Assembly (NCBI GenBank): GCA_050239825.1
Contig: JBFXGO010000006.1
Location: forward strand, 4,690-68,689
Direction of reading: 5' to 3'
Source: a bacterium
Lineage (GTDB): Bacteria; Hydrothermota; 32-111
DNA length: 64,000 bases
The notes beneath the pieces were generated by a model. It was not told the origin of the DNA and made no database searches. It was given only the letters and a program-made list of their open reading frames with translations. The first letter of the stretch is position 1. Each line of letters opens with the position of its first letter. Of the stretch, positions 1 to 36,454 are shown one piece after another. The translations under genes and the position numbers were made by a program.

Positions 1-536
1 TGAAGCATGTTCTCAGGCAGGATCCGGATATAATTCTAATGGGAGAAATCAGAGATATGGACACTATGGATGTGGCTATAAAAGCCGCCGATACTGGGCA
101 TCTTGTGTTATCTACACTTCATACGCTCAATGCCTCTGAGACAATAAACAGAATCCTCTCCTTCTATCCTCCTCATCAGCAGCAGCATATAAGAGTGCTT
201 CTTGCAACAACTCTTGTCGGAGTTCTGTCGCTTCGTCTTCTTCCAAGAACGGACGGGAAGGGCAGAGTTCCGGCTACAGAGGTGATGATAAACACACCTA
301 CAATAAAAGAGTACCTGCTGGACCCGATAAAAACTCTTCTCATTCCCACGGCGATAGATGAGGGGCAGCAGTATCAGATGCATACATTTGATCAATCAGT
401 TATGAGATTGTATAAGTCGGGTATAATTACCTATGATGACGCCCTGCAGTCTGTGACCAATGTCGATGAGTTCAAATTGAAACTCAGAGGCATAGAATCA
501 AGCGAGGGCGATGCATTTAACACATTTAGGGACTGA
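1..536 (+). CDS. pilT: Type IV pilus retraction ATPase PilT/PilU family, C-terminal part (5' end upstream of window)
   Basis: Frame is open from the window edge. The translation [41 protein letters not shown] matches the conserved PilT Asp-box/His-box region. The tail is typical of PilT (GIITYDDAL). Confidence 0.85.
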
Positions 537-543
537 GGTATTT

Positions 544-1146
544 ATGTCATTAGTCAATTACGCGAAGAAAGAGATCATCTGCAAAGTGGTTTATTACGGT
601 CCCGGAAGGTCGGGAAAAACAACAAATCTGCAGTATATCTTCAGTAAAATACCAGTTGAAAAGCGAGGAGAGATGACATCTCTTGCCACTGAAATGGATA
701 GGACGCTATTCTTTGACTTTCTTCCGTTTGATGTGGGCAAAATCGGAAATTTCAATGCAAAATTTCAGCTCTACACGGTTCCCGGGCAGGTGTATTATGA
801 TTCAACAAGAAAACTTGTCCTTCAGGGTGCGGACGGAGTCGTCTTTGTCGCAGATTCACAGGTTGACAGAATGGAAGACAATATTGAGTCATTTGAAAAT
901 CTTGCCCTGAATCTGAAAGAGAATGGATTCAGCATTGACACGATGCCTCTGGTTGTTCAGTACAACAAGAGGGACCTTCCGAATGCGGTTGATATTCAGT
1001 CGATCAAAAGCGCGCTTCAGTTGAGGGATGACTGGAAGACATTTGAAGCTGTGGCAACAAAAGGTGTCGGAGTTATAGAGACCCTTAAAGATGCAATGTT
1101 TACGGTTATTAAGCAACTGACAAGAAGGTATGATAACAAAAGATGA
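544..1146 (+). CDS. mglA: MglA-type Ras-like small GTPase (motility/polarity switch)
   Basis: Read from the ATG at 544 (MSLVNYAKKEI...). P-loop is YYGPGRSGKTTNLQYI. The MglA-specific switch II is LYTVPGQVYY. NKRD guanine-specificity motif is present. By eye it is near-colinear with Myxococcus MglA over the full length. Confidence 0.9.
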   Translation: MSLVNYAKKEIICKVVYYGPGRSGKTTNLQYIFSKIPVEKRGEMTSLATEMDRTLFFDFLPFDVGKIGNFNAKFQLYTVPGQVYYDSTRKLVLQGADGVVFVADSQVDRMEDNIESFENLALNLKENGFSIDTMPLVVQYNKRDLPNAVDIQSIKSALQLRDDWKTFEAVATKGVGVIETLKDAMFTVIKQLTRRYDNKR

Positions 1147-2813
1147 ATGATAGCGACATTAAAGAGTTTCAGGAGATATTCGGTACAAGGCAGAGGCACA
1201 GAGATAACTCTGAGCTTCCCGAAAATCCTTTTCTGAAATCTGAGCTTTCCTACGCAGTCTCCACCGGAACTCTTACATCAAAAGTCATAGTGGTGCAGTC
1301 AGCCGACAGTTCTGCGGAAATATTTGCCGATAAAATGGCAGAATCCATCTCATCTTCATTTCCAGATTTTTATATTTTCAGAATAGACCTAAAAGAGATG
1401 GTCGAGCTGATGAAATTCAACGCACTTTCGAAATACAAAAAATTTCTTGTTTATTCAAATCTTCTGATAATCGAGAATCTTGAGCAGATAGAGAAGAATA
1501 AAGTAGTTTACGATGCCATTGTAGAAATCATAAACTCGCTTCACGCCACTTCATATCTGTTGGTAACTGCGAAAAAGAATCTTGAAGATATTGGCATGGA
1601 TATGAAGACAAGAAACTTCTTAATGACGGGTAAATTCTTTGCGCTCAAAGATGATTTGAAGAAGCAAGAAAACAGTCCGATCGAGGATTTTGCCGATTTT
1701 ATAAGTCAGGTCAAGCAGGAAGCCGGAGTGCAGGAGAATCTCAACGAGGGCGAGAAACGGGAGGAGTTCATCGAAAAACTCTATATATGGGAAATGAAAG
1801 GATTCAATGTAGACAGACTGAAGAATGTGATCAATAACAATGACATCTCCCTCATAAAAAAAGAATTCAGCGATTTCACCGGAAAAATAAGAGAGCTTGT
1901 GGAACTGCATAAAGATTACGGATTGCTTAACATCAGGGAGTTCAAGAAAGAATCTAGGGAAATCGAGGAGATTCTCTTTGATCCGGATAAGCTTGAAACA
2001 ATCAAGGCGAAAACGGAGGAATTGAAGGAAAAGATAAAATATCTCAGGATGTTCAGGAATAATGTGAAGCTTTCGATGACCTATGAAACATTTATAACGG
2101 ATGCGACGAACCGCTCAGCGTACAACAAAATAACCGAGGTAATCAACAATGAAAATGCCGAGAAGATAATTATTCTAACAGGGACAAACGGCACTGGAAA
2201 GACGCATCTGCTTAACAGCGTGTGCAATTACTTTCCGGATAACAGAATAATCTTCCTGGATAAAACCAATATTGATTTAGCGGTAAACTCTTCCTATGTG
2301 ATGAGATATATGGAAGACCTTTCGATGATACTGATAGATGATTTTGACATTCTCTTTGAGAACAAAGCGAACAAGGCGGTTCTTAAGAATGTTATTATGA
2401 ACAATGTGCCGAAAATTATATCTATGTATAGAAAATTCAGCATTGACGACAGGGAGCTTTTGAATTATCTGAACAAATTTCAATCATTCAACATTCAGCC
2501 GACATCTCTGTTTATAAAGAAAAATGTGTTCAAAACAATGTTTTCGCGTCTTGGAATCCAGACGAATGATTTCATAATGAATTACATGCTTGATACCATT
2601 GAATCTCCTCTTTCATCCATAGAGAAACAGTTCGCACAGCTCTCACAGAATTTATCCGAAGGAGTTCCGACTATAGAGGCGATTGACAGAATATTTCCCC
2701 CGGTTGAATCGAAGAAAGTAGCATCAAAGAAAAAAGGCGAATACGACACATCTCGGCTTATAAAAGAGTGGATAAATGAGCATGACAGGCTCTATGTCGA
2801 ATTTGAGGTCTAA
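1143..2813 (+). CDS. Uncharacterised 556-aa protein with two tandem DnaA/Hda-like AAA+ modules (N-terminal degenerate, C-terminal with intact Walker A/B) joined by a charged helical linker
   Basis: C-module: TYETFITDATNRSAY...IIILTGTNGTGKTHLLNSV...MILIDDFDILFENKANK parallels DnaA domain III (TFDNFV.G.SN..A, GG.GLGKTHLL, LLIDDIQF). N-module: VIVVQSADSSAEIFADKMAESI...LLIIENLEQIEKNKVVYDAIVEIINSLHATSYLLVTAKKNLEDIG has the same layout but lacks GKT and DD. It overlaps mglA by 4 nt. Confidence 0.6.
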   Translation: MNDSDIKEFQEIFGTRQRHRDNSELPENPFLKSELSYAVSTGTLTSKVIVVQSADSSAEIFADKMAESISSSFPDFYIFRIDLKEMVELMKFNALSKYKKFLVYSNLLIIENLEQIEKNKVVYDAIVEIINSLHATSYLLVTAKKNLEDIGMDMKTRNFLMTGKFFALKDDLKKQENSPIEDFADFISQVKQEAGVQENLNEGEKREEFIEKLYIWEMKGFNVDRLKNVINNNDISLIKKEFSDFTGKIRELVELHKDYGLLNIREFKKESREIEEILFDPDKLETIKAKTEELKEKIKYLRMFRNNVKLSMTYETFITDATNRSAYNKITEVINNENAEKIIILTGTNGTGKTHLLNSVCNYFPDNRIIFLDKTNIDLAVNSSYVMRYMEDLSMILIDDFDILFENKANKAVLKNVIMNNVPKIISMYRKFSIDDRELLNYLNKFQSFNIQPTSLFIKKNVFKTMFSRLGIQTNDFIMNYMLDTIESPLSSIEKQFAQLSQNLSEGVPTIEAIDRIFPPVESKKVASKKKGEYDTSRLIKEWINEHDRLYVEFEV

Positions 2814-4412
2814 ATGAGCATAAGGGGAAATCTTAAAGAGGCATCTCTTCCTGATGTAATTCAGCTTCTTTCACTCGGAAGAAAAACGGGAGTTCTAAGC
2901 GTATCCGACAAGAAAAATTTCGGAGACATTTTTTTTAAAGACGGTAAAATAATATATTGTTCGATAGTCAACAGAGAGGAGCGCATCGGCAATCTTCTTG
3001 TCAAGTATTCGGATATCACAAAGGAGCAGCTTGAAAAGGCTCTTGAAATCCAAGAAGAGATGAAAGGCATGAAGAGACTTGGAGATATACTTATTGAATC
3101 AGGGTACATAACGCAGGATATCCTTGTTGACAGAATAAAAAAACAGATAATCGACTCAATTTTCACACTGCTCACCTGGAAGGAAGGATTTTTCAATTTT
3201 GAACCGGATATCCCGCCCGTGTCTGAAACCATAACGGTTGAGCTTGAAGCAGATGATATTCTGCTTGAAGAGGCGCGCAAGATAGACGAATGGTCGATTA
3301 TAGAGAGTGAATTGCCGAGTGAAAAAGTCATACTCGTAAAAACAAGCATCAAAGATGAAAATACTCTCCAGGAAGAGAATGAAAAGTATGTTTATTCTCT
3401 TGTCAACAACAGGCTCTCCGTAAAGGAAATATTCGATAAGACTGTTTTGGGAAAATATGAAACGGGGAAGGCTATCTATACTCTTCTGAAAGTCGGCTAC
3501 ATCTATTCGGGAGAGGAGAAGCAGTTGGAAGTTTCAACAGATGTGCAGGCAAAGGTGACCGAACACCACAATCTCGGGCTTGCATTCCTTCTAACTGAAA
3601 TGTTTGAAGAGGCATTGCGCGAATTCAGACACATAATTCAAATTGACAAGACTAACATAAAGGCATATTTTTATATAGCGCTTATCTATTTCAGGCTTAA
3701 AGAGTATGAAAAAGCACTCTCTTCGTTTGAGGAGCTTTTAAAGCTGGGGGTTGCCAATGTTGCTCTCTTCAATAATATTGCGCTGACATTTGAGAGACTC
3801 AATAACTTTGAAAGAGCAGACGAATTCTACGAAAGAGCTCTCAAACTGGAGCCGGAAAATGCGAAGATACTCTCCAATTACGGAATTCTTTCATTTAAAA
3901 TGAATCTTTTTTCCGAAGCCGAAGAGAAGCTTAAAATGGCTCTGAAGATAGACCCGAACCTCAAGCATGCGTCATTCTTTCTTGCGCTAGTCTATTTTGA
4001 GAATGGCATGGTAAGCGAGTCAACAAACATTCTCTTCTCTCTCGTCAAGCAGGACAATACGATATGGCAGGTCTATTACAACATTGCCGAAATATACATG
4101 ATAAGCGGCAAATCAGAATCTGCGGAATCAATGTTCAAGAAGGCGGTTGAGACATCTAATTCAGATCCTATACCGTACAAAGCGCTTGTTGAGTATTATT
4201 TTACAGAGAAAAATTTTGATGCGGCAGAGAATGTGCTTGAAGAAATAATAAATCTGGGCAAGGCTGATTTTGAAATATTCTACAAGATGGGAAACCTGAA
4301 ATACAGAAAGGGAATCAAGAAGGATGCAGTAGAATACTGGGAAAGAGCGCTGGAGCTTCAGCCGACCAATGAAATAGTGAAACGCACTCTGGAGACTGTG
4401 AAAAATGGTTGA
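2814..4412 (+). CDS. PATAN (DUF4388) domain protein with C-terminal TPR repeats
   Basis: N-terminus GNLKEASLPDVIQLLSLGRKTGVLSVSDKKNFGDIFFKDGKIIYC is the typical DUF4388/PATAN signature. The C-terminal half holds multiple 34-aa TPR-like repeats (AYFYIALIYFRLKEYEKALSSFEELLKL etc.). It abuts the preceding stop codon. Confidence 0.8.
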   Translation: MSIRGNLKEASLPDVIQLLSLGRKTGVLSVSDKKNFGDIFFKDGKIIYCSIVNREERIGNLLVKYSDITKEQLEKALEIQEEMKGMKRLGDILIESGYITQDILVDRIKKQIIDSIFTLLTWKEGFFNFEPDIPPVSETITVELEADDILLEEARKIDEWSIIESELPSEKVILVKTSIKDENTLQEENEKYVYSLVNNRLSVKEIFDKTVLGKYETGKAIYTLLKVGYIYSGEEKQLEVSTDVQAKVTEHHNLGLAFLLTEMFEEALREFRHIIQIDKTNIKAYFYIALIYFRLKEYEKALSSFEELLKLGVANVALFNNIALTFERLNNFERADEFYERALKLEPENAKILSNYGILSFKMNLFSEAEEKLKMALKIDPNLKHASFFLALVYFENGMVSESTNILFSLVKQDNTIWQVYYNIAEIYMISGKSESAESMFKKAVETSNSDPIPYKALVEYYFTEKNFDAAENVLEEIINLGKADFEIFYKMGNLKYRKGIKKDAVEYWERALELQPTNEIVKRTLETVKNG

Positions 4413-5223
4413 TAATGATTATCAGATGCTTATTGACTATATAAGCAGGCATATAAGCATAGACGGAAATCTATACAAAGAGAAACCTTTCAAAAGAAGG
4501 CTGAATGTCAGAATGCGCCATAATAATATGACCGAATATCGCGAGTATCTTGATTTTTTAAGAACAAGCTCGGAGGAGCTTCGAAAATTAAAGGACACGT
4601 TAACAATAAATGTAACCCGATTCTACAGAAACAGAGAGACTTTTGAATATCTTGAACAGTTCATAATCAAAGATATTTTCAAAAAAAATCAAAGAATAAG
4701 GATATTAAGCGCGGGGTCCTCAACAGGAGAGGAGGCTTACACAATTTCCATGATAATAAACAACAACTTCAGGAATTCTTCCCAAAAGTGTGAAATTGTC
4801 GGTATTGATGTAGACACACTGTCCGTGGAGAGGGCGAAAATCGGAATATACAATGAATTTTCCTTCATGGAGTTGAAGGCGGAGGAGATTGATAAATATT
4901 TCAGAAAGAGCGGAGCTCATTTTGTTTTGAGTGAAGAATTGAAAAAAAATGTTGAGTTCATAATAATGGATATAAAAGAGAGTGATGCTCTTTTAAGGTT
5001 GGGAAAATTTGATATGATCGTCTGCAGAAATATTTTGATATATTTTTCAAAAGATTTTCAAGAGAAAATAATATCCGATTTTCATAAAATGCTAAAAAAT
5101 GACGGATACCTTGTTCTCGGAAAAGTGGAGATACTCACTGGACATGTGAAGGAACTTTTTGAAACAGTGAACAGAAAGGAAAGGGTTTTTAAAAAAATTG
5201 CTTATACACATACGAATAGCTGA
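4405..5223 (+). CDS. cheR: Chemotaxis protein methyltransferase CheR
   Basis: Carries the TINVTRFYRN motif and the SAM-binding motif RILSAGSSTGEEAYTISMII, plus CRNILIYF. Overlaps the upstream gene by 8 nt. Confidence 0.9.
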   Translation: MVDNDYQMLIDYISRHISIDGNLYKEKPFKRRLNVRMRHNNMTEYREYLDFLRTSSEELRKLKDTLTINVTRFYRNRETFEYLEQFIIKDIFKKNQRIRILSAGSSTGEEAYTISMIINNNFRNSSQKCEIVGIDVDTLSVERAKIGIYNEFSFMELKAEEIDKYFRKSGAHFVLSEELKKNVEFIIMDIKESDALLRLGKFDMIVCRNILIYFSKDFQEKIISDFHKMLKNDGYLVLGKVEILTGHVKELFETVNRKERVFKKIAYTHTNS

Positions 5224-5677
5224 CGCGAATATTGCATTTGAGGATGATGTATTGAAGACAATCGGTCTCGGTTCTTGCGTTGCGGTGACTCTTTATGACA
5301 GAGAAAAAAAAATAGGAGGAATGATCCATTTTATGCTACCCAGCAAGATATTTTCCAAAACATTCTTCAATCCTTACAAATACTGCGACACGGGGCTGAC
5401 AAATTTGATTATGGAGATGGAACAACTCGGAGCAAGAAAATACAGAATAGAGGCAAAACTTGTCGGAGGCGCCAATATGTTCTCCCTATTTATCAAGAAT
5501 ATAGAAGAATCAATAGGGTACAGAAATATTGAGATGGCTAAGAAAATTCTTCGAGAGAACAGAATTCCCGTGATCGCCGAGGATACGGGAAGCGACTACA
5601 GCAGGTCGGTTGAATTGACAGTGAAGACGGGCATAATAAAAGTCACTTCATATAAGAATGGGGAGATTCAGTATTGA
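5198..5677 (+). CDS. cheD: Chemoreceptor glutamine deamidase CheD
   Basis: Carries the TIGLGSCVAVTLYD active-site Cys motif, MIHFMLP and KLVGGANMF. TTG start overlaps cheR by 26 nt, so the exact start is uncertain. Confidence 0.85.
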   Translation: MLIHIRIADANIAFEDDVLKTIGLGSCVAVTLYDREKKIGGMIHFMLPSKIFSKTFFNPYKYCDTGLTNLIMEMEQLGARKYRIEAKLVGGANMFSLFIKNIEESIGYRNIEMAKKILRENRIPVIAEDTGSDYSRSVELTVKTGIIKVTSYKNGEIQY

Positions 5678-6717
5678 AGGTATACAGAGTACTTGTTGTT
5701 GATGATTCGCTCTTGATGCGGCAGATAATAAAGGACATAGTAAATTCCGAGAAGTCTTTCATTGTAGTCGGAGAAGCGGCAGACGGAGCCGAAGCAATAG
5801 AAAAATTCAAACAGCTTGATCCTGATATTGTCACTCTTGATATAGAGATGCCGAAAATAAACGGACTGATAAGCCTTCAGCAGATACTCAAAATAAAACC
5901 TGTTCCGGTTATCATAATAAGCGCATATTCCAAAGTCGGATCGAAGATCGCTCTTAAAGCTCTGGAATTCGGAGCATTTGACATTGTTGAAAAACCGTCC
6001 GGGTCTATTTCTATAGACATCGCGGTTAAAAAAGAAGAGATAATACAGAAGATGATCTGCGGAATAAAAGCGGACATAAGCAGGCTTTTACATGAATTCA
6101 CGGGACTATCTGACAAATCGGATAAAAAGATAAGGCAGACGGAGAAAGCATCTAATCTCATTGCTATAGCATCCTCGACGGGCGGTCCGAAGTCGCTGAT
6201 GGATATAATACCGAGAATTCAGTCAAACATCAATGCTGGAATCGCAGTGGTGCAGCACATGCCTGCAGGATTCACCCGTTCATTTTCCGAAAGAATGAAC
6301 TCAATGTCCAATCTGAATGTTTATGAATCTTTTGAAAATTGCGTGCTCAGGAACGGGGACTGCGTTATAGCACAGGGAGGAAAGCACACGGTTTTCGATG
6401 AAGACGGAATAATACACCTTTCCGATGACCCTCCATATCATTCCGTAAAACCTGCTGCTGATATAATGATGCTGTCTGCGGTAAAGCATTTCAAGGAAAG
6501 AATAATAGGTGTTGTGCTAACAGGTATGGGCAAGGACGGTTCTGAAGGCGTGTTCATAATAAACAAGATGGGCGGCACAAATATAGCGGAGTCAAAGGAG
6601 ACTTCCGTTGTTTTCGGAATGCCGAAAGCCGCAATAGAAACAGGCAAAGTCGATTTCATTCTTGATAGGGATAAAATCGCGCGAAAAATAGAGGAGTTGG
6701 CAAATGAAATGGCTTGA
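5674..6717 (+). CDS. cheB: Chemotaxis response regulator protein-glutamate methylesterase CheB
   Basis: N-terminal receiver (VLVVDDSLLMR...DIVTLDIEMPKINGL). C-terminal methylesterase motifs IASSTGGP, VQHMPAGFT and GMGKDGSEG. TTG start overlaps cheD by 4 nt. Confidence 0.9.
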   Translation: MKVYRVLVVDDSLLMRQIIKDIVNSEKSFIVVGEAADGAEAIEKFKQLDPDIVTLDIEMPKINGLISLQQILKIKPVPVIIISAYSKVGSKIALKALEFGAFDIVEKPSGSISIDIAVKKEEIIQKMICGIKADISRLLHEFTGLSDKSDKKIRQTEKASNLIAIASSTGGPKSLMDIIPRIQSNINAGIAVVQHMPAGFTRSFSERMNSMSNLNVYESFENCVLRNGDCVIAQGGKHTVFDEDGIIHLSDDPPYHSVKPAADIMMLSAVKHFKERIIGVVLTGMGKDGSEGVFIINKMGGTNIAESKETSVVFGMPKAAIETGKVDFILDRDKIARKIEELANEMA

Positions 6718-7549
6718 AGCAAAAAAAGAGATTGAAGCGCATCTTGAAAAACTTGAAAATATTGTTGCTACGGGAAAATACGGAGAAGAACATATCAAGA
6801 GCGAACTCATGGAAATATACAAACAGGTGATAGCCATAAACAATTTTGTCAAACATTCTGACGCGAGAATCAAAAATCTGGCTAAACACATAATGAACCC
6901 GTCGGTAAGCAAGGACGGCCTCAAGACATTTGTTCAGTCTATGAAGATAGCGCCTGTAGATCTGACAACTTATATCGACAAGGGCTGGAATTTTATGGTT
7001 GACGAACAGTATGATGATGCCGTTGAGATACTTGAGAAAGCGATAAGCCTGTCGCCGAATGATGTCAAATCTCTGGGGCTTCTGGGTTGGGCGTATATAC
7101 ATAAGGAAAGATACGATGATGCAATGAGCATTTTTCAAACGGTTCTTTCTCTTGATCCGGAGAATGCCATTGCAAAGAACAATCTTGGTTTTGTCTGCTT
7201 CAAAAAAGGCATTTTCGGAGAGGCGATAGAACATCTCACCTCTGTGATTAAATCCACGGAAGACAAGATGTCTCTCATATATGCACATTTTTACCTCGGT
7301 TTGATTTATCTTGACAGAGAGATGTATGAAGATGCAATACGATTCCTTCTGAAAACAATAGAACTGGGGCCCAATCACATGGAGGCATACTATTACCTTG
7401 GATTGGCTTATTTTGAGTCGGGAAAGGAGAGCAAGGGCATCAAAACATTGAAGGACCTTATCAAGAAAAACCGATACAACAGGTGGGCTCAGAAGGCAGA
7501 GGAAAAACTTAAAGAGTTAACCGGAGAAAAAAATGAAAAAGAAAATTGA
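6704..7549 (+). CDS. TPR repeat protein
   Basis: Repeated TPR consensus segments (YDDAVEILEKAISLSPNDVKSLGLLGWAY, YDDAMSIFQTVLSLDPENAIAKNNLGFV, YEDAIRFLLKTIELGPNHMEAYYYLGLAY). Overlaps cheB by 14 nt. Confidence 0.8.
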   Translation: MKWLEAKKEIEAHLEKLENIVATGKYGEEHIKSELMEIYKQVIAINNFVKHSDARIKNLAKHIMNPSVSKDGLKTFVQSMKIAPVDLTTYIDKGWNFMVDEQYDDAVEILEKAISLSPNDVKSLGLLGWAYIHKERYDDAMSIFQTVLSLDPENAIAKNNLGFVCFKKGIFGEAIEHLTSVIKSTEDKMSLIYAHFYLGLIYLDREMYEDAIRFLLKTIELGPNHMEAYYYLGLAYFESGKESKGIKTLKDLIKKNRYNRWAQKAEEKLKELTGEKNEKEN

Positions 7550-8270
7550 CCTTCAGGAGATTCTCGGCGGCGAAAAGCCGGAAAAAAAGCAGAGGCAGAA
7601 AAAAACGGAAAAGAGGGAGAACTCCAAAATAAATGCAACTGTCGAAAAGAAGATGGAAACTCCTATATTATTGACGGAAAAAAGAAATCCAGATCCTGTC
7701 GTCAATAAGGTTCAGAAAAAGGAAGACTCAAAAACAGTACAGCAGGAGCCGGTCAATATAAGACAGATGAAAGACATCTCGGAGAAGAAGGATGAATCTG
7801 ATATTGTGAAGGAGTATGTGACATTCCTGTTGAAGAAAGAAGAGTATGCAATTGACAGTGATTTTGTGAGACAGATTATAAAATACAAAAAAACTATAGA
7901 TATTGGATTGAAGAGCGACCTTTTCTTTGGCGTTACAAATATGAAAGACGGAGTCCTGCCTCTTGTTGACTTCAGAAAAAAATTCGGCATGTCGGAAGAG
8001 AGAAAAGAGGAAGGTTCGATAATTATTCTTCAGATTGATGATCTTAGAGTTGGAGTTTATGTGGATTATCTTGTGGGAATTGTGCGGTTCAAGGACTCTG
8101 ACATAAAACAAATCCCCCCTTTTCTTCCCGAAAGACAGCTTGCGTATGTGACGGGTATCGGAATAAAATCAGGTAAATTCAAAAAAATAATCATTATTCT
8201 TAATCATTTGAATCTCTTTACAAGGGATGATATAAGGGAAATGAAGAGGATTCCGGAGATGTATAAGTGA
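7533..8270 (+). CDS. CheW-like coupling protein with a ~95-aa Lys/Glu-rich N-terminal extension
   Basis: The C-terminal ~145 aa (EYVTFLLKKEEYAIDSDFVRQIIKY...GVLPLVDFRKKFG...IIILQIDDLRVGVYVDYLVGIV) follows the CheW domain pattern. The N-terminus is low-complexity K/E/Q-rich. Confidence 0.75.
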   Translation: MKKKIDLQEILGGEKPEKKQRQKKTEKRENSKINATVEKKMETPILLTEKRNPDPVVNKVQKKEDSKTVQQEPVNIRQMKDISEKKDESDIVKEYVTFLLKKEEYAIDSDFVRQIIKYKKTIDIGLKSDLFFGVTNMKDGVLPLVDFRKKFGMSEERKEEGSIIILQIDDLRVGVYVDYLVGIVRFKDSDIKQIPPFLPERQLAYVTGIGIKSGKFKKIIIILNHLNLFTRDDIREMKRIPEMYK

Positions 8271-8707
8271 TAATGCAGAGAGTTTTATACCTTATCCCTT
8301 CATGTTTTTTTATAGGCAATTTGAAAGGGGGAGGCACGATAGTTTCCGTTTTATTCTGCTTAACAGCATATTTTCTCAAAGCGAACGACCTGCAAATGTT
8401 CTTTGTTTTTTCCATATCGCTTTTTCTGACATCTCTTTCAATAGAAAAATCATTTCTTTTCAAGGGAGATGACAGCCGCATTGTAGCTGATGAATTGATA
8501 GGGATGGTGGTCTCTCTTCTTTTTTTGCCTCGGTCAATTTTGATTTATATTTCAGCTCTTGCAGTCTTCAGGTTTTTTGACATTTCAAAACCTTATCTCA
8601 TTAAACAATCAGAGTCCATTGGCGGTTCAACGGGAATCATCATGGATGATGTTCTGTCGGGAGTTGCATCCAATATTGTAATAAGGATTTTTCTGTGGAT
8701 GATATGA
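8267..8707 (+). CDS. pgpA: Phosphatidylglycerophosphatase A
   Basis: DDSRIVADELIGM...FRFFDISKP...GIIMDDVLSGVASNI matches the PgpA family pattern. It is an integral membrane protein. Confidence 0.8.
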   Translation: MIMQRVLYLIPSCFFIGNLKGGGTIVSVLFCLTAYFLKANDLQMFFVFSISLFLTSLSIEKSFLFKGDDSRIVADELIGMVVSLLFLPRSILIYISALAVFRFFDISKPYLIKQSESIGGSTGIIMDDVLSGVASNIVIRIFLWMI

Positions 8708-9885
8708 AATCAGCTTTACTATGCGTAGGCGATGAAATTCTAAACGGCGTAATTCTCAACACCAATTCAAGGCATCTCAATTCTTTTATGCACCAAAAAG
8801 GCTGGCAGGTGATAGAGGAGAGGGTTGTAAAAGACAGCATTGATGATATAGCCGAATCAGTCGCAGAACTCATCGGAAAATGCAATCTGCTTTTGGTGAC
8901 AGGCGGTCTGGGCCCCACATTTGACGATAAAACCGTGGATGGCGTTGCCAAAGCCCTTAAAAGAAGGGTTGTAGAAAGCAGAAAGATGAGAACAAGGGCA
9001 AAAAAGCATATGAAGAACAAAAACGAGCTGCTTCTCGCCAGACAGTCAAGAATGGTTGAAAAAGCAGTTTTAATAGATAATTCGGCAGGCATTGCAATGT
9101 GTCAAAAATTATCGGTGCAGGGATGCGATATATACCTGCTGCCCGGAGTTCCTTCGGAAGTGGAATGGATTGTTACGAATAAACTAAACAAAGAAATTCC
9201 TTCAGCTGATTTTAAAGAATACAAACTAAGACTTTTTGATGCAACAGAGACAGCGGTGCACATTAAGCTATGTGAAAAATTCGGAGAGGATAAGACAGGA
9301 GCTGTATCATTTCTGCCATCTACGGGAAGTTTGCTTCTTATTACAGCAGATAAAAACATCATACTGCATGCGCGAAAAGCTTTTCCCGAAAATTACGCCT
9401 TGTCAGGCGACAAGCCGATAGAGAGGATGCTTCTGGAAGAGATGAAGAGAAGAAATCTTTCTCTTGCTTTGGCTGAGTCGTGCACCGGGGGAGCCATCAG
9501 CTCTCTTATTACAAGTGTTGAAGGGAGTAGTAAAGTTTTTAAGGGATGCGCTGTCGTCTATTCAAATGAGGCAAAGGAGAAGATTCTTGGAATTAACAAA
9601 AGGATTATTGACAGATATGGAGCAGTGAGCAGAGAGACCGCGGAGAGAATGGCAGAGAGAGTTTGCTCTATATTTAAAACAGATGCTTCAATTGCGGTGA
9701 CTGGAATAGCCGGTCCGGGAGGCGGATCAAATAATAAACCAGTAGGACTTGTATATATATCCACCAATTATAAAAACAGAGTGGTTACATTGGAACGGAA
9801 ATTCAGCGGCGGCAGGAACTCTGTGAAAATGAAGAGTTCTGTCATAGCCCTTTTTAACCTTTTAAGGAGAGTGATTAATGAGTAA
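8704..9885 (+). CDS. cinA: CinA family protein (MoCF-like N-domain plus nicotinamide-nucleotide amidohydrolase PncC domain)
   Basis: Start MKSALLCVGDEILNG has an ATGA overlap with the pgpA stop. LLVTGGLGPT is present. The C-terminal part carries LALAESCTGGAISSLIT..GSS..FKG..VVYSNEAK..LG. Confidence 0.85.
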   Translation: MKSALLCVGDEILNGVILNTNSRHLNSFMHQKGWQVIEERVVKDSIDDIAESVAELIGKCNLLLVTGGLGPTFDDKTVDGVAKALKRRVVESRKMRTRAKKHMKNKNELLLARQSRMVEKAVLIDNSAGIAMCQKLSVQGCDIYLLPGVPSEVEWIVTNKLNKEIPSADFKEYKLRLFDATETAVHIKLCEKFGEDKTGAVSFLPSTGSLLLITADKNIILHARKAFPENYALSGDKPIERMLLEEMKRRNLSLALAESCTGGAISSLITSVEGSSKVFKGCAVVYSNEAKEKILGINKRIIDRYGAVSRETAERMAERVCSIFKTDASIAVTGIAGPGGGSNNKPVGLVYISTNYKNRVVTLERKFSGGRNSVKMKSSVIALFNLLRRVINE

Positions 9886-10444
9886 AAGGCTTTTTATTGC
9901 TTACAAAATTCCGACAGATTTAAGAAACGATCTGCTCGTGGCGCAACACAAGCTAAAGAACAATCTGCAGCTACAGGGCATTAGCTGGGTAAAACCTGAC
10001 AACATGCATATTACTGTTGCTTTTTTGGGGCAAGTCGAGGAAAGAATGATAAGTTCGCTTGAAGATATTGTGAGGACACAATCATTTTCAGTATGTACTG
10101 TAAGAGGAGACAAAATGTCCTTTTTTTTAAGGAATAATGTTCCTTCAATACTCTACTATAGCCTTGCAAATACTGCAGAGCTGGAAAGAACGGCCAATGA
10201 CATTAGGGGAAGGCTTGTGGATAAGAATATTGATTTCGACAGGAAGCTGTTTAATCCGCACATCACTATGGCGAGAATCAAGGATGAGGAGAGTGGAAAT
10301 TCACTAAAAGAGTATATACTTGGAAAACCCGAATCTGTACAGCAGACAACTTATAAAATATCATCAATCACATTGTATGAATCGCGTTTTTCGGAAAGCG
10401 GTCCGCAGTATGTTTCACTGTTTGAAAAAAATCAGGAGGTATAA
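9878..10444 (+). CDS. thpR: RNA 2',3'-cyclic phosphodiesterase / 2'-5' RNA ligase family (2H phosphoesterase)
   Basis: Two HxT motifs are present (HITVAFLG and HITMARI) at the spacing expected for the LigT/ThpR family. Confidence 0.8.
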   Translation: MSKRLFIAYKIPTDLRNDLLVAQHKLKNNLQLQGISWVKPDNMHITVAFLGQVEERMISSLEDIVRTQSFSVCTVRGDKMSFFLRNNVPSILYYSLANTAELERTANDIRGRLVDKNIDFDRKLFNPHITMARIKDEESGNSLKEYILGKPESVQQTTYKISSITLYESRFSESGPQYVSLFEKNQEV

Positions 10445-11470
10445 ATGGATAGCAACAAATTGAAGTCATTGGATCTTACGCTGAAGCAGATTGAAAAAGA
10501 GTATGGAAAAGGCTCAGTGATGAGACTTGGAGAGAGGCCGAATGTAGCCGGAGATATAATCTCCACAGGTTCTATTTCAATAGATGCGGCTCTGGGAATA
10601 GGCGGAGTGCCAAGGGGAAGAATTGTCGAAATATACGGGTCTGAAGCCAGCGGGAAAACAACTCTTGCGCTTCAGATTGCAGCTCAGGCACAGAAAGCGG
10701 GAGGCATAGCGGCATACATAGACGCAGAGCATGCTCTTGACCCTCAGTATGCGCAGAAGTTGGGTGTTGACATTGACAATCTTTACATCTCCCAACCGGA
10801 TACAGGAGAGCAGGCTTTGGAGATAACGGAAATGCTTGTAAGGAGCGGAAGCGTAGACATTGTTGTGATAGATTCTGTGGCGGCTCTCACGCCCAAGGCG
10901 GAGATAGAGGGAGATATGGGAGATTCCCACATGGGGCTTCAGGCAAGACTCATGTCGCAGGCATTGAGGAAACTCACTGCTGTGATAAACAGGTCAAAGA
11001 CCTCTGTGGTTTTCATAAATCAGGTAAGGTACAAAATAGGAGTTATGTTCGGCAATCCCATGACCACTCCGGGCGGACTCGCCTTGAAATTTCATTCTTC
11101 TATAAGGATGGAAGTGCGCAGGGTAACTTCAATAAAGTCGGGAGAGGAGGAGATAGGCAATATAGTAGAGGTCAAAGTGGTTAAAAACAAAGTTGCTCCT
11201 CCATTCAAGCGCGCGCAAGTGTCAATATATTTTGGAGAGGGTGTATCCAGAGAGGGAGAGATAGTCGATATGGCGACGAATCTGAACATAATAGAGAAGA
11301 CCGGAGCATGGTATGCTTACGGCAATAACAAACTTGGACAGGGAAGGGAGAATATAAGGCAGTTCCTAAAGGATAACAAACAGGTTGCTGATGAGATAGA
11401 GGGCAAAATAAGAAAAGCCATGGGAATAGCAATTGAAGATAACAAAAATAGAGAGAGCAAAGAAAAATAA
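10445..11470 (+). CDS. recA: Recombinase RecA
   Basis: [14 protein letters not shown], Walker [27 protein letters not shown] and VVIDSVAAL are canonical RecA motifs. Confidence 0.97.
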
Positions 11471-12038
11471 ATTTAAAGTTAACATCTTTATAGACGGAGA
11501 GTTCTCATTCTCCGTTTATGAGGATGTCTTTTTGAAGATGAAAATTCAGAAAGATATGGAAATTGACGGCAGTTTCATAGAAAAGGCGAAATCTGCAAGT
11601 GAATTTGAACGCAACAAACTCTACCTTCTGAATATACTTTCAAGGAAAAATTACACTGAAAGAGAGCTTCACACAAAGCTTATGCAGAGAAAGGTGGAGA
11701 GGGAGAGCGCCGAGTCATTGATAGAGAACATCAGAAGAATGGGGTTTCTTGACGATGACAAATACATCAAAGATTATATGAATTTTCTAATGGATTCAAA
11801 GAAGTATTCCAAGCAGGAAATATTTCAAAAAATGAGAATGAAATTTAATGATGAAGAAAAAATGAAAGAGTGTGAAGTCGCACTGAAAGAGTATGATGAA
11901 AAAGAGGTTTTAAAGAAACTGATGAAAAAAATAAAATCGGACATTGATAAAAATAAAATAATTTCACGCCTTATGAGAAAGGGTTTTAAATATGAAGATA
12001 TATCGGATATCATGAAAACAATCCAAAAGGAGGATTAA
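11433..12038 (+). CDS. recX: RecA regulator RecX
   Basis: Sits immediately downstream of and overlapping recA (TTG start, 38-nt overlap). Helical repeat protein ([13 protein letters not shown]...DDDKYIKDY...) typical of RecX. Start codon is uncertain. Confidence 0.7.
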
Positions 12039-12039
12039 A

Positions 12040-12945
12040 ATGGCGCTTTTTTTATTAATACTGGCTATAGCAATTATTATTGTCTGGACCAGGTTTTTCC
12101 CAAAATTCCACTTAAACAGAAAGACGATAATTGTGTGGGGTTCAATTGTGATTTTGTTTGTGATACTGGCTTCAACTGTAAGAGTTGTTCAGCCGGGAAC
12201 CGTCGGAGTGCAGGTGCTTTTCGGAAATGTCTATAAGAAAGTTCTCTCCAACGGGCTTCATTTTGTTTTTCCTTTTGTCGAAGTGAAGACCATGGATGTG
12301 AGAGTGCAGGATTATACAATGTCTGTGGCTCAGGAGGAGGGTGTTCGGAAGGGAGATGACGGAATTACTTCCCTTACAAAAGACGGCCTTCAGATAAATC
12401 TTGACATTACGGTTTGGTATCAGCTGAAGAGCGATAAAGCTGCCGAAGTTTATCAGAATATTGGAAAGGATTATGTGGAAAAAATTGTCCGCCCGGCTAT
12501 AAGGACTGCAATCAGGAATGCCACGGTTCTTTATAATGTAACTGAAATCTATTCTTTAAAGAGAGAGGAATTGACGGATATAATCTTCACAGAACTGCAT
12601 AAGAATCTTTCCGATAAGGGAATAATATGCGATAAAGTTCTTCTCAGAAACATTGACCTTCCGCAGAAGGTCAAGAATGCCATTGATGAGAAGATCGCCG
12701 CCGAGCAGGAGGCGCAGAAGATGGTTTATATACTTGAAAAGGAACAGCGCGAAAAAGAAAGAAAATTGATAGAAGCAGAGGGCATTGCAGTATCCCAGAA
12801 AAAGATTTCCGAATCGCTCAACAAACAGTATCTGCAGTGGTACTATATTCAGAATCTCAAAGAGGTTCTGAATTCAAACAATACAAAGGTCGTCATAATG
12901 CCTTATGACAAGACTCTCACTCCGCTTCTCAATATAGGCCAATGA
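12040..12945 (+). CDS. SPFH/band 7 (prohibitin/HflC-like) membrane protein
   Basis: N-terminal TM helix, then VVQPGTVGVQVLFG...LTKDGLQINLDITVWYQL...IVRPAIRTAIRN and a coiled-coil EQEAQK tail. This is the SPFH domain pattern. Confidence 0.85.
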   Translation: MALFLLILAIAIIIVWTRFFPKFHLNRKTIIVWGSIVILFVILASTVRVVQPGTVGVQVLFGNVYKKVLSNGLHFVFPFVEVKTMDVRVQDYTMSVAQEEGVRKGDDGITSLTKDGLQINLDITVWYQLKSDKAAEVYQNIGKDYVEKIVRPAIRTAIRNATVLYNVTEIYSLKREELTDIIFTELHKNLSDKGIICDKVLLRNIDLPQKVKNAIDEKIAAEQEAQKMVYILEKEQREKERKLIEAEGIAVSQKKISESLNKQYLQWYYIQNLKEVLNSNNTKVVIMPYDKTLTPLLNIGQ

Positions 12946-14150
12946 CAGAATATCTGAAACTGCTTTCGGTTTTGGCTCTTATAGTTGCCATGATGAGAAT
13001 TAAGATAGGCATGGGTATATCCCTTATAGTCTCATCTCTTCTTATAGGGTTTCTCTTCTTTGAATCTTTTCTCGAAATTCCTATAGTGTTTTATCAATCA
13101 GTCACTTCGTATACGACAATAAAGACTGTTCTCATTGTCTACGGAGTTCTTCTTCTCTCGTATGTGATGAAAGAGAGGCAGATAGACAGAATGATAGGCG
13201 GTCTTACACAGCTTTTCAGGAGCATTAAGTACGCCATTATAGTTCCGCCGATGCTTTTAGGTCTTCTTCCGATGCCGGGCGGCGCGATGCTGCCAGCCGC
13301 AATAATTGATTCTATGGGTACTCCGCTCAAGCTTACCCCTGAGCAAAAAACTTATATCAATTATTGGTTCAGGCATATTTGGGAATACTTCTGGCCTCTA
13401 TATCCCGGGCTTATTCTTACTGCTTCTATCATGCAGATTTCAATAAAAAGAATAATGGTCCACCAGTTTTATCTTACAATACTTGCTTTCGTTATAGGGC
13501 TGATTGTGATTTATCTCATAAAGGGCAATGCGTCAAATGAGGCAAGAAAAAATGCAAAGGACGGTTTAACTGCTCTTGTCAGGTCAATTCTGCCGATTCT
13601 CATAATGATACTTCTCATTATAGCCACTCCTGTCAGCGAAGAGATAATAGTTCTCGGAGTCACCTTCATTTATCTGATTGTAACTAAAATGCCTTTTAAG
13701 AAGAAAGTCGAATCATTGTTTAAAAGCGTCTCCGCAGAATCTATGCTTCTGATTCTCGGAGTGATGATCTTCAAGGACTTTCTGATTGCTTCCAAGTCGC
13801 TTGATTCAATCGCCGGCTCTATGAGCAGAGAAGTCTCCATATATGGTCTTCTCGTCATAATGCCTTTTCTGATGGGTTTTTTAACCGGAATAAATCAGGC
13901 TTATGTCGGAATAGCCCTCCCGATAGCGGCGCAGTTGATTTTGTCTCAGGGAGGAATTGATTTTACAAAGCTCACTCTCTTCTATGCGGCCGGTTTTGCC
14001 GGGGTGTTGCTATCTCCTGTTCATCTGTGTCTGTCACTTACAAAAGAGTATTACAAGGCTGAGTGGCCGAAGATATATAAAATGCTTATTCCCTCGGTTA
14101 TACCCATCTTGCTTATTCCTATTCTGATTTACATGTTTTTTGGCAAATAA
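12942..14150 (+). CDS. Polytopic integral membrane protein, DUF401-like (ion-transporter superfamily-like)
   Basis: About 10-12 hydrophobic segments. YINYWFRHIWEYFWPLYPG resembles the DUF401 family. Overlaps the SPFH gene by 4 nt. Family assignment is from memory only. Confidence 0.5.
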   Translation: MTEYLKLLSVLALIVAMMRIKIGMGISLIVSSLLIGFLFFESFLEIPIVFYQSVTSYTTIKTVLIVYGVLLLSYVMKERQIDRMIGGLTQLFRSIKYAIIVPPMLLGLLPMPGGAMLPAAIIDSMGTPLKLTPEQKTYINYWFRHIWEYFWPLYPGLILTASIMQISIKRIMVHQFYLTILAFVIGLIVIYLIKGNASNEARKNAKDGLTALVRSILPILIMILLIIATPVSEEIIVLGVTFIYLIVTKMPFKKKVESLFKSVSAESMLLILGVMIFKDFLIASKSLDSIAGSMSREVSIYGLLVIMPFLMGFLTGINQAYVGIALPIAAQLILSQGGIDFTKLTLFYAAGFAGVLLSPVHLCLSLTKEYYKAEWPKIYKMLIPSVIPILLIPILIYMFFGK

Positions 14151-14163
14151 AGAAGGAGAACAA

Positions 14164-14586
14164 ATGAAAAAATGGATTATTGGAGTTCTAATTTTTATCG
14201 CAACTGTTTCGATAGGTTGCTTCAAAAAGAATGACGAACAGGCTGTTAAAAATGTCATTATTGGAAACATCGAGGCGATGAACAGAGAAGATATCAAATG
14301 GTATATGTCAACAATTTATGATGACGGAACAGACAATTATGATTCACTTGAGGTGATGCTCACTGATATTTTTGCCAAGTTCAGCATTGAAATTGAAATA
14401 CTAAGCATTGAGATAGTTGAAATAGGAGATGATGTCGCAAAAGCGCGTGCAAAGACCTCAACCAAAGTGGATGGAAATTATCCCAACAAAAATAGCAAGG
14501 CGACATCGGTGCACTATCTTGTAAAAGACAATGGAGTATGGAAGATACAGAGCACTATAAATGAGGAAGTCAAATACTTTGATTAG
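14164..14586 (+). CDS. Lipoprotein with NTF2/SnoaL-like fold
   Basis: AAGGAG SD sits 6 nt upstream of the ATG at 14164. Signal peptide with lipobox is MKKWIIGVLIFIATVSIGC. AVKNVIIGNIEAMNREDIKWYMS...VHYLVKDNGVWKIQS resembles the NTF2-like pattern. Confidence 0.6.
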   Translation: MKKWIIGVLIFIATVSIGCFKKNDEQAVKNVIIGNIEAMNREDIKWYMSTIYDDGTDNYDSLEVMLTDIFAKFSIEIEILSIEIVEIGDDVAKARAKTSTKVDGNYPNKNSKATSVHYLVKDNGVWKIQSTINEEVKYFD

Positions 14587-36381: not shown

Positions 36382-36454
36382 GGGTATCATTTTTCTGCAA
36401 ATGCTTATTTAATAAAGAAGCGGATTGTTGATTTTTTTATTACAGCAGGATATA

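Follow-up and report, generated by a model that had tools for sequence, protein, structure and literature searches.

The first 8270 nt of a 64,000-nt stretch of a bacterial genome (GTDB lineage Hydrothermota, 32-111; GenBank assembly GCA_050239825.1, contig JBFXGO010000006.1, positions 4,690 to 68,689 of the forward strand; the whole stretch is hereafter called the window) encode, in series on the plus strand, PilT, the Ras-like polarity GTPase MglA, a 556-aa AAA+ protein, a PATAN (DUF4388) protein with TPR repeats, the adaptation enzymes CheR, CheD and CheB, a second TPR protein and a CheW-domain protein. Comparison with related loci makes it, in our assessment, probable that this cluster is one lineage's version of a module that is conserved across WOR-3 bacteria and their relatives (TA06, Stahlbacteria, Hydrothermales) and forms one part of a larger chemosensory and polarity pathway that likely steers type IV pili. 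The invariant core of the module consists of the AAA+, PATAN-TPR, cheR, cheD and cheB genes, usually followed by a gene for a TPR protein. The GTPase unit 5' of this core comprises MglA together with MglB, MglB alone or, as in the window, MglA alone beside pilT, and in some lineages the core is followed by CheW, a methyl-accepting chemotaxis protein (MCP) and a second CheW.

Gene content and packing of the cluster

The genes were identified with Pfam and NCBIfam profiles and from the translations of the open reading frames (ORFs), and have the following window coordinates:

1–536, plus strand: 3' part of pilT, the gene start lying 565 nt before the window (Pfam T2SSE, E 5e-24)
544–1146, plus strand: mglA, Ras-like polarity GTPase of 200 aa (match to MglA structures; also called on the Logan contig)
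1143–2813, plus strand: 556-aa protein, a predicted DnaA/Hda-derived tandem AAA+ protein (Pfam Bac_DnaA, 36 bits)
1683–2060, plus strand: helical middle domain of the AAA+ protein, residues ~181–306 (family-invariant motifs)
2814–4412, plus strand: PATAN (DUF4388) protein with TPR repeats, 532 aa (Pfam DUF4388, 122 bits, and many TPR families)
2982–3146, plus strand: tandem MshEN-type motif in the helical insertion of PATAN (NCBIfam NF053729, 49.6 bits), RIGNLLVKYSDITKEQLEKALEIQ ... RLGDILIESGYITQDILVDRIKKQ
4405–5223, plus strand: cheR, chemoreceptor methyltransferase (Pfam CheR, 168 bits, and CheR_N)
5198–5677, plus strand: cheD, chemoreceptor glutamine deamidase (Pfam CheD, 104 bits; NCBIfam CheD models, 1e-40, below their equivalog cut-offs)
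5674–6717, plus strand: cheB, receiver (REC) and methylesterase domains (Pfam CheB_methylest, 180 bits, and Response_reg, 86 bits; NF001965, 348 bits vs cut-off 293)
6704–7549, plus strand: 281-aa TPR protein with an N-terminal helical region (Pfam TPR families)
7533–8270, plus strand: CheW-domain protein with a Lys/Glu-rich N-terminal extension of ~90 aa (Pfam CheW, 84 bits, residues 94–231)

Over 11,146 nt, a Logan-assembled contig (L001) agrees with the window at every position (0 mismatches), and independent gene calls on it give the same coordinates. On this contig, PilT is complete (366 aa, L001:8893–9993) and exceeds the cut-off of the PilT/PilU model TIGR01420 (457.7 vs 319.1 bits), a match that leaves PilT and PilU undistinguished. 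Inspected by eye, the phospho-acceptor motifs (VVDDS, TLDIEMP, VEKP) and the catalytic motifs (SSTGG, QHMPAGF, GMGKDG) of CheB appear intact.

From pilT to the CheW gene, the successive junctions are a 7-nt gap, a 4-nt overlap, direct abutment, and overlaps of 8, 26, 4, 14 and 17 nt. A previous reading of the window from its letters alone (hereafter, the sequence-only reading) had described these nine tightly packed genes and their junctions, and the Pfam and NCBIfam scans and the Logan gene calls bear the description out. That reading also presented the genes as one translationally coupled array. Such tight packing is not special to the cluster: it begins upstream, at the genes for a 507-aa TPR protein (TPR507) and EF-P (efp), and extends past position 8270 through pgpA, cinA, thpR, recA, recX and four further genes, to ~14,586. 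Because the packing runs on beyond the cluster, coupling alone does not delimit a functional unit; translational coupling is habitual in this genome and no mark of the module. Nor did a promoter and terminator scan of positions 1 to 15,000 yield a usable operon boundary, terminators being no more frequent than in shuffled sequence.

Conservation of the core and variation of the GTPase unit

Related loci were collected by one scan of GTDB species representatives and one scan of JGI metagenome contigs, which together produced 93 loci (81 non-redundant), and the window proteins and several probes were mapped onto them. The pattern used in the GTDB scan, WEMK[GN]FN, misses the WEMKGFD of the MglB-linked branch, so that this branch is under-sampled among named genomes. 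Among the non-redundant loci, the AAA+ gene lies directly 5' of the PATAN-TPR gene in 64 of the 70 that extend far enough, and the gene directly 5' of the AAA+ gene is mglA in 36 loci and an MglB-like Roadblock gene in 32. Homologues of the 556-aa protein are thus strongly syntenic with mglA and PATAN genes, a linkage on which the sequence-only reading depended. Its view of the system as centred on MglA gives way to a different invariant, the AAA+-PATAN/TPR-cheR-cheD-cheB core.

In the window-type clade, with AAA+ proteins 41–82% identical to that of the window, the gene order is TPR507-efp-pilT-mglA-AAA-PATAN-cheR-cheD-cheB-TPR-cheW-pgpA-cinA-thpR-recA; its members come from WOR-3 metagenome-assembled genomes (MAGs), one MAG labelled TA06, one labelled 'Acetofilamentum' and several that are otherwise labelled. 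Elsewhere the flanks diverge and the core is kept: in L018, accC and thiE separate pilT from mglA, polysaccharide genes lie downstream in L016, and in L058 the upstream flank is recR-yajC-def-fmt-rsmB and the downstream flank an inositol monophosphatase family gene. A gene of the 281-aa TPR type follows cheB in most loci of every branch. The proposal of the sequence-only reading that the adaptation enzymes are tied to the module holds in that cheR-cheD-cheB travel with the core despite these differing flanks. The system is probably not self-contained, as the receptor and kinase genes described below indicate.

The complete order mglA-mglB-AAA-PATAN-cheR-cheD-cheB-TPR is found in nine loci. The MglB-like ORFs align with a Myxococcus xanthus MglB sequence at E 1e-9 to 1e-19, and three of the five that were scanned match Pfam Robl_LC7 (E 4e-5 to 4e-4), only one of them above the gathering score; exact-sequence look-ups place the MglB-linked loci in MAGs named 'candidate division WOR-3' or 'Candidatus Hydrothermales'. 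Since the AAA+ protein coexists with MglB in these sister lineages, whether as mglA-mglB-AAA (the nine loci) or as mglB-AAA (approximately 25 loci), it is not an MglB substitute, contrary to the earlier suggestion that it occupies the MglB slot. For the window's branch, being without MglB is a derived condition, mglB having been lost or moved.

Receptor genes vary in a similar manner. In L018, L020, L021 and many metagenome loci, the TPR gene is followed by genes for AAA_22, CheW, a 560-aa HAMP-containing MCP and a second CheW, and then by pgpA/cinA, so that an MCP in the cluster looks ancestral. A search with this in-cluster MCP recovered a lineage-specific group of MCPs, including a homologous 582-aa protein encoded next to rho and rpmE on contig DYMB01000007 (GCA_020721805.1), the same assembly that contains the window-type locus L009; on a related contig (L029), the MCP-rho-rpmE genes lie just 3' of pilM-pilN-pilO-pilQ and a gene for a single-domain response regulator. 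The MCP has therefore moved, rather than having been lost, in genomes with window-type clusters. CheR, CheB and CheD modify MCPs; the relocated MCP gives these adaptation enzymes a plausible substrate, and the adjoining pil genes show that the organisms possess pilus machinery. Finally, in L070, the mglB-AAA-PATAN-cheR-cheD-cheB genes are directly preceded by genes for CheY, a complete CheA (Hpt, dimerisation, HATPase_c and CheW-like domains), CheC, a large TPR protein, a second PATAN-TPR protein, a TPR-Roadblock fusion and a further Roadblock protein.

MglA and its covariation with mglB

The window GTPase matches the M. xanthus MglA structures 6h17/5ymx over residues 1–193 (E 1.3e-72) and Thermus thermophilus 3t12 (E 1e-66), and carries the P-loop GPGRSGKTT, the intrinsic arginine finger TEMDRTLFF (R53 in M. 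xanthus) and the catalytic glutamine in TVPGQ (Q82 in M. xanthus). These matches and motifs identify it unambiguously as MglA, in agreement with the sequence-only reading.

When mglA of the window (544–1146) was compared with the mglA genes of loci L002 to L100, catalytic residues were found to covary with mglB. In all nine loci in which mglA adjoins mglB, the P-loop is of the Myxococcus-like form G[TP]GLCGKT (GPGLGGKT in L100) and glutamine replaces the arginine finger (TELDQTLFF). In the MglB-less loci, the P-loop is GPGR[SA]GKT (GAGRSGKT in two), and the arginine finger is kept in all loci read but one (Lys in L091). The extra P-loop arginine would adjoin the position equivalent to Ras G12, the numbering being taken from the alignment of the structure match. 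This pattern suggests that the GTPase cycle may have been re-tuned when mglB was lost or gained.

The AAA+ protein and its helical middle domain

The 556-aa protein is composed of a degenerate N-terminal domain (~25–170), a helical 'WEMKGFN' domain (~181–306), an intact AAA+ domain (~311–520) with Walker A (GTNGTGKTH) and Walker B (LIDDFD) motifs, and a conserved DRLYVEFE tail. The description of the protein as tandem AAA+ in the sequence-only reading thus stands for the C-terminal domain and needs correction for the N-terminal, Rossmann-like domain, from which the P-loop/Walker A motif has been lost. All 23 full-length homologues come from WOR-3 or Stahlbacteria MAGs, where they are annotated as 'DnaA/Hda family protein', 'AAA family ATPase' or 'chromosomal replication initiation ATPase'. 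An AlphaFold2 model built from the homologue alignment (predicted local distance difference test, pLDDT, 78.5) has a five-stranded Rossmann-like N-terminal domain, a helical middle and a C-terminal AAA+ domain with lid. In Foldseek, both halves of the protein align to the tandem AAA+ proteins p97/Cdc48/NVL at E 1e-9, with a template modelling (TM) score of only ~0.22, and when hhalign pairs the N- and C-terminal domains (E 9e-4), the degenerate loop falls in register with GTNGTGKTH.

Distant members of the family settle the origin of the protein: TA06-type homologues (633 aa) possess two intact DnaA-like AAA+ domains, one on either side of the middle domain, and one two-domain member (P0190, from the search of representative proteins) scores 202 bits against Pfam Bac_DnaA. 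The scanned MglB-linked versions score 74–112 bits, and Stahlbacteria/TA06-type homologues of ~385 aa combine a single AAA+ domain with the middle domain. A third homologue search, based on a diverse alignment (A3), returned only the window-type clade and ordinary DnaA/DnaC and missed the MglB-linked branch, a limit of the word index.

The protein itself is neither DnaA nor Hda, both identities being ruled out by scores far below the curated cut-offs (61 vs 195 bits for Hda, TIGR03420; 45 vs 344 for DnaA, TIGR00362) and by the lack of a DNA-binding domain, Bac_DnaA_C (DnaA domain IV) being absent from the 556-aa protein in Pfam and NCBIfam scans; the broader PF00308 passes (36 vs 23). Taken together, the comparisons point to a tandem ATPase derived from DnaA/Hda, its first domain degenerate and a helical domain at its centre. 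The 'DnaA/Hda' and 'chromosomal replication initiation ATPase' annotations in WOR-3 genomes are probably misleading.

The middle domain, a helical unit of ~100–125 residues, is the only region that is invariant across the family, with the motifs K-L-Y-x-W-E-M-K-G-F and L-F-x-P. Among 1.84 billion representative proteins, a search with this domain by itself retrieves just 125 relatives, many of which are proteins of 900–1500 aa with 6–10 tandem copies (e.g., P0178), and one of which (P0179) has an N-terminal DUF835 domain. None of the relatives scanned matched a Pfam model in this region. Modelled alone, the domain reaches a pLDDT of 86 and a predicted TM score of 0.72, and a known fold was ruled out, there being no match in the PDB at E < 1.

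The PATAN-TPR protein and a predicted c-di-GMP-binding element

The PATAN assignment is secure (PF14332, 122.3 bits vs cut-off 25, residues 4–161). The C-terminal part of the protein consists of TPR repeats and has no Response_reg match in Pfam, so that the protein is not of the PatA type (PATAN-REC). Within PATAN, residues 57–111, in a helical insertion, match NF053729, a model for the MshE-related cyclic di-GMP (c-di-GMP) motif (49.6 bits vs cut-off 38). The insertion reads as two tandem 24-residue copies of the structurally defined MshEN motif, RLGxx(L/V/I)(L/V/I)xxG(L/V/I)(L/V/I)xxxxLxxxLxxQ, which binds c-di-GMP (PMC5013675). The second copy matches this consensus exactly, and related tandem motifs are present in most of the orthologues that were inspected. 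We therefore regard the insertion as a predicted c-di-GMP-binding-type element.

Genes missing from the cluster

Roadblock, CheA, REC-only (CheY) and MCP genes were found neither in the 64-kb window nor in the 9.4 kb 5' of pilT, based on a Pfam scan of ~55 window ORFs and on jackhmmer searches with CheY, CheB-REC, CheW, MCP, CheA and MglB queries. Negatives obtained with the MglB, CheY, Tsr and CheA query sequences are weaker than those of a curated-profile scan; these probes did work, in that Pfam scans confirmed their CheA, REC and MCP hits among the ORFs scanned and gave weak confirmation of the MglB-like ones (3/5 ORFs). In the window, Pfam also detected no Hpt, H-kinase_dim or HATPase_c proteins, and the scanned window ORFs of at least 500 aa are housekeeping proteins or lack a Pfam match, except for two cluster proteins. 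With the jackhmmer CheA query, CheA was found only in L070. The absence of a flanking Roadblock gene and of CheA, CheY and MCP genes from the window, asserted by the sequence-only reading, is accordingly upheld, and extension along the identical Logan contig uncovered neither mglB nor a conventional che operon preceding pilT.

Of the components of a complete chemosensory system, the cluster thus contains CheW, CheR, CheD and CheB with its REC domain, and lacks CheA and MCP. As for MglB, 390 of 449 members of the MglA family have a coupled MglB (Roadblock/LC7) gene within four genes (PMC4316618); the window and the 9.4 kb before it have no Robl_LC7 match and no MglB-like ORF, and the sister lineages have such a gene.

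A CheA encoded elsewhere in the genome is more likely than a CheA-free pathway, considering the intact CheB receiver, the CheY-CheA-CheC genes of L070 and small receiver-domain genes near window-type clusters. These last genes (118–141 aa) lie on the minus strand at ~5800–6200 of L004–L010 and L035–L038, divergent from and just 5' of TPR507. The clusters concerned are window-type relatives at 46–48% identity, and no small REC gene is present at the corresponding place in the window organism.

A proposed pathway

From this gene content we infer a pathway with two inputs. A methylation-adapted array of chemoreceptors and CheW would sense one signal, the MCP being encoded elsewhere in window-type genomes, and the MshEN-type motif within PATAN would sense c-di-GMP. 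Both inputs would meet at the PATAN-TPR protein, which may act as an MglA effector or adaptor toward the type IV pilus motor, and the outcome would be control of where or when pili extend and retract. The adaptor role is proposed by analogy with two characterized systems. In M. xanthus, MglA-GTP recruits its effector, the TPR protein SgmX, which brings PilB to the pilus machine (PMC11580455), and in Synechocystis PATAN is an output domain that binds PilB1 and PilC (bioRxiv 10.1101/2021.06.11.447907). The AAA+ protein would be a dedicated, obligatory accessory ATPase (a scaffold, a remodeller or a regulator of nucleotide state) and no replacement for MglB, and a CheA/CheY pair encoded elsewhere probably phosphorylates CheB.

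Weighing the alternatives

Several observations count against this picture of a conserved, pilus-steering module. A region of 20 genes, including efp and recA, is collinear in close relatives, and part of the synteny is shared descent. Approximately 25 loci have mglB-AAA-PATAN and the genes that follow, with no mglA within 10 kb, so that MglA may not be an obligatory hub, and pilT is linked to the cluster only in the MglB-less branch, being absent from the MglB-containing versions. In the window's organism, covered here by the window and the upstream contig, none of CheA, CheY, MglB, PilB and PilC was located. The first MshEN-type motif deviates from the consensus, with Ser for Gly and a spacer of 7 residues rather than 5, and some orthologues retain a single motif (L016). 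Distant homologues of the AAA+ protein occur without nearby GTPase, PATAN or che genes. Five are fused to LptB between lptA and rpoN (L024, L025, L089, L092 and L098): a DnaA-like AAA+ domain and the WEMKGF domain are joined to a full LptB ABC-ATPase, as at L025 1948–3771 and at L024 9377–11206, the latter placed between lptC/lptA and rpoN in an envelope-biogenesis context; another, in a Gemmatimonadetes MAG (L015), lies beside a TPR protein gene. The AAA+ family is therefore not exclusive to the module.

These LptB fusions would suit the view that the neighbours are functionally unrelated, brought together by a compact, co-directional genome and inherited order, with the DnaA/Hda-like protein acting in replication control; so would the continuation of the packing into pgpA-cinA-thpR-recA-recX, the collinearity of close relatives across efp and recA, and the restriction of the database similarities of the AAA+ protein to DnaA/Hda. 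We give this view little credence, as the AAA-PATAN-cheR-cheD-cheB core outlasts complete turnover of the flanks in distant lineages, the scores against the DnaA and Hda models fall far short of their cut-offs with domain IV lacking, and the family-invariant part is the helical domain, which is not of DnaA. The proposal of the sequence-only reading, a self-contained MglA switch lacking both MglB and CheA, in which the AAA+ protein replaces MglB as a GTPase-activating protein (GAP) or guanine nucleotide exchange factor, the adaptation enzymes act directly and retraction is controlled, appears quite unlikely. It can draw on the lack of Roadblock, CheA, CheY and MCP genes in 73 kb around the cluster, on the 4-nt overlap of mglA with the AAA+ gene, on the GPGR[SA]GKT P-loop shared by MglB-less loci, which suggests an altered GTPase cycle, and on the precedent of an orphan MglA that is functional in Bdellovibrio (PMC4316618). 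It is at odds with the position of the AAA+ gene 3' of an MglB-like gene in 32 sister-lineage loci, nine of which also have mglA, and its claim to be self-contained conflicts with the MCP and second CheW in sister clusters, the matching MCP elsewhere in one genome, the CheY-CheA-CheC genes adjoining the module in L070, the small REC genes near window-type clusters and the apparently phosphorylatable REC domain that CheB retains.

Two further readings, each unlikely in our estimate, accept the module and differ over its output or its wiring. One has it control a process other than pili (gliding, division/polarity or development) as a pathway of the 'alternative cellular function' kind, with pilT a mere neighbour. 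The absence of pilT from MglB-containing clusters and the accC/thiE genes that separate it from mglA in some lineages are consistent with this, as is the regulation of non-motility functions by many Che-like systems and MglA homologues (PMC4316618). The link to pilT, and with it the control of retraction proposed by the sequence-only reading, is confined to the MglB-less branch, and housekeeping genes can interrupt it. On the other side, wherever an MglB-less locus extends far enough, its pilT lies within 2 kb of mglA, the relocated MCP adjoins pilMNO-pilQ in L029, and PATAN has been linked experimentally to the pilus motor (bioRxiv 10.1101/2021.06.11.447907). The other dispenses with CheA-CheY: the MCP/CheW array would signal to MglA/MglB through the PATAN-TPR and AAA+ proteins, with c-di-GMP as a second input, the WEMKGF domain would bind the GTPase or Roadblock protein, and the AAA+ protein would represent a new class of MglA/MglB regulator. 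On this account, there would be two ways of running the GTPase cycle, one with MglB and a finger-less MglA and one with no MglB and an MglA bearing the arginine finger and the P-loop arginine. The features of CheB, L070 and the small REC genes that favour a CheA elsewhere make such a CheA-free route the less likely one.

Comparison with known systems

One of the closest known systems is the Myxococcus MglA system, with which the module shares a true MglA with catalytic Arg and Gln residues, a Roadblock-type MglB in sister clusters, TPR proteins as likely effectors, CheR, CheB and CheW, and a probable type IV pilus output. In Myxococcus, however, mglBA, frz and sgmX are unlinked, whereas in WOR-3 the GTPase, the effector-like proteins and the adaptation enzymes are encoded in one conserved cluster; the window lineage lacks nearby MglB, CheA or FrzZ-type regulators, and has in addition the DnaA-derived AAA+ and PATAN proteins, for which no Myxococcus counterpart in such a role has been described. 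The cyanobacterial PatA-type (PATAN-REC) regulators of the Tax/Pix/Hmp systems likewise combine a PATAN protein encoded with chemotaxis-like genes and a type IV pilus context. Unlike these, the window PATAN is fused to TPR rather than to a receiver, carries the tandem MshEN-type motif and has MglA and the AAA+ protein as partners; lacking the receiver, it would not be controlled directly by CheA phosphorylation.

Bdellovibrio bacteriovorus MglA has Ser at the Gly21 position, whereas the window MglA keeps Gly21 and has Arg as the neighbouring residue (GPGRSGKT), in an entirely different gene context. The two are alike in having no adjacent MglB, and the Bdellovibrio protein has a pilus-related link and TPR/RomR partners (PMC4316618). 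The AAA+ domains of the 556-aa family resemble DnaA domain III, but the proteins differ from DnaA/Hda by the lack of domains I/II and of the DNA-binding domain IV, by tandem duplication with an inserted helical domain and by their signalling context. Compared with the type II tandem AAA+ proteins p97/NSF, to which the Foldseek alignments point at low TM score, the N-terminal domain of the window protein lacks the Walker A motif that is intact in TA06-type homologues. The MshEN domains of MshE/PilB/GspE have the same arrangement of two tandem 24-residue motifs of the RLGxxLLxxG...LxxxLxxQ type; in the window, the element is located in the helical insertion of PATAN, not at the N-terminus of a secretion ATPase, and its first motif is imperfect.

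Neighbouring genes

Upstream of the cluster, the Logan contig encodes, in order, PolA, a RadC-N fragment, an MmeI-type restriction-modification (R-M) enzyme, a 129-aa protein, a DUF2284 protein, a nucleotidyltransferase, a short-chain dehydrogenase, TPR507, EF-P and the full-length PilT. The R-M enzyme is a fused protein of the MmeI/Eco57I type (1024 aa, L001 1119–4193, ~5 kb upstream of the window start), and the 129-aa ORF that follows it matches no family in Pfam. TPR507 (L001 6787–8310), two genes 5' of pilT and outside the window, is kept upstream of efp-pilT in most window-type loci that reach far enough upstream. The TPR region at its N-terminus and the TPR portion of the L070 TPR-Roadblock fusion are homologous (E 9e-12); a hidden Roadblock domain in TPR507 was ruled out, as nothing but this N-terminal region aligns to the fusion.

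The rest of the window is devoted to housekeeping functions, including SecA, LigA, Dxs, RNase Y, ThrRS, IF3, L20, fatty-acid synthesis, ETF, NadA and TyrRS. A ThyX ORF of 448 aa on the minus strand (14570–15916) contains two Thy1 stretches, suggesting tandem duplication of this flavin-dependent thymidylate synthase. Between 34000 and 38000, the GC content drops to 0.34–0.37 from ~0.41 in a stretch that encodes an AAA_14/DUF4143 ATPase (35254–36381) and a 531-aa ORF without a Pfam match (36425–38020) and that may be an acquired island. Positions 50125–55411 encode an amine-oxidase-type flavoprotein, a 509-aa ORF without a Pfam match, a DUF58 protein and a BatA-like protein, the last two genes resembling part of a Bat (aerotolerance-type) operon.

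Novelty and implications

Two associations were already known, namely that of MglA/MglB with PATAN proteins, whose genes are established neighbours (PMC4316618), and that of PATAN with Che-like systems. A literature search retrieved no paper that describes the module and none that combines WOR-3 with MglA, in keeping with the claim of the sequence-only reading that the system is undescribed; a survey of Geobacter che clusters makes no mention of MglA, GTPases, PATAN or DnaA, and no paper was found stating that PATAN domains contain an MshEN-type motif. What is new is the fixed architecture of eight to twelve genes, the DnaA-derived tandem AAA+ partner with its structurally unmatched helical domain, the MshEN-type motif within PATAN in such a context, and the MglB-dependent covariation in MglA.

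MglA/MglB serves as the model system for the building and inversion of a front-rear axis in bacteria, and in Myxococcus the route by which chemosensory signals reach MglA/MglB is still debated. The WOR-3 cluster provides a candidate wiring diagram in which a GTPase and its GAP, a PATAN-TPR adaptor bearing a c-di-GMP-type motif, receptor-adaptation enzymes and an unexpected DnaA-derived ATPase are encoded together. It thereby offers concrete candidates for the steps still missing on the way from chemoreceptor arrays and second messengers to polarity GTPases and the pilus motor. Lineages with and without MglB constitute a natural experiment, and the matching changes in the catalytic residues of MglA bear on how the GTPase cycle can run. 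For WOR-3 bacteria, a protein until now annotated as 'DnaA/Hda family' gains a likely biological role.

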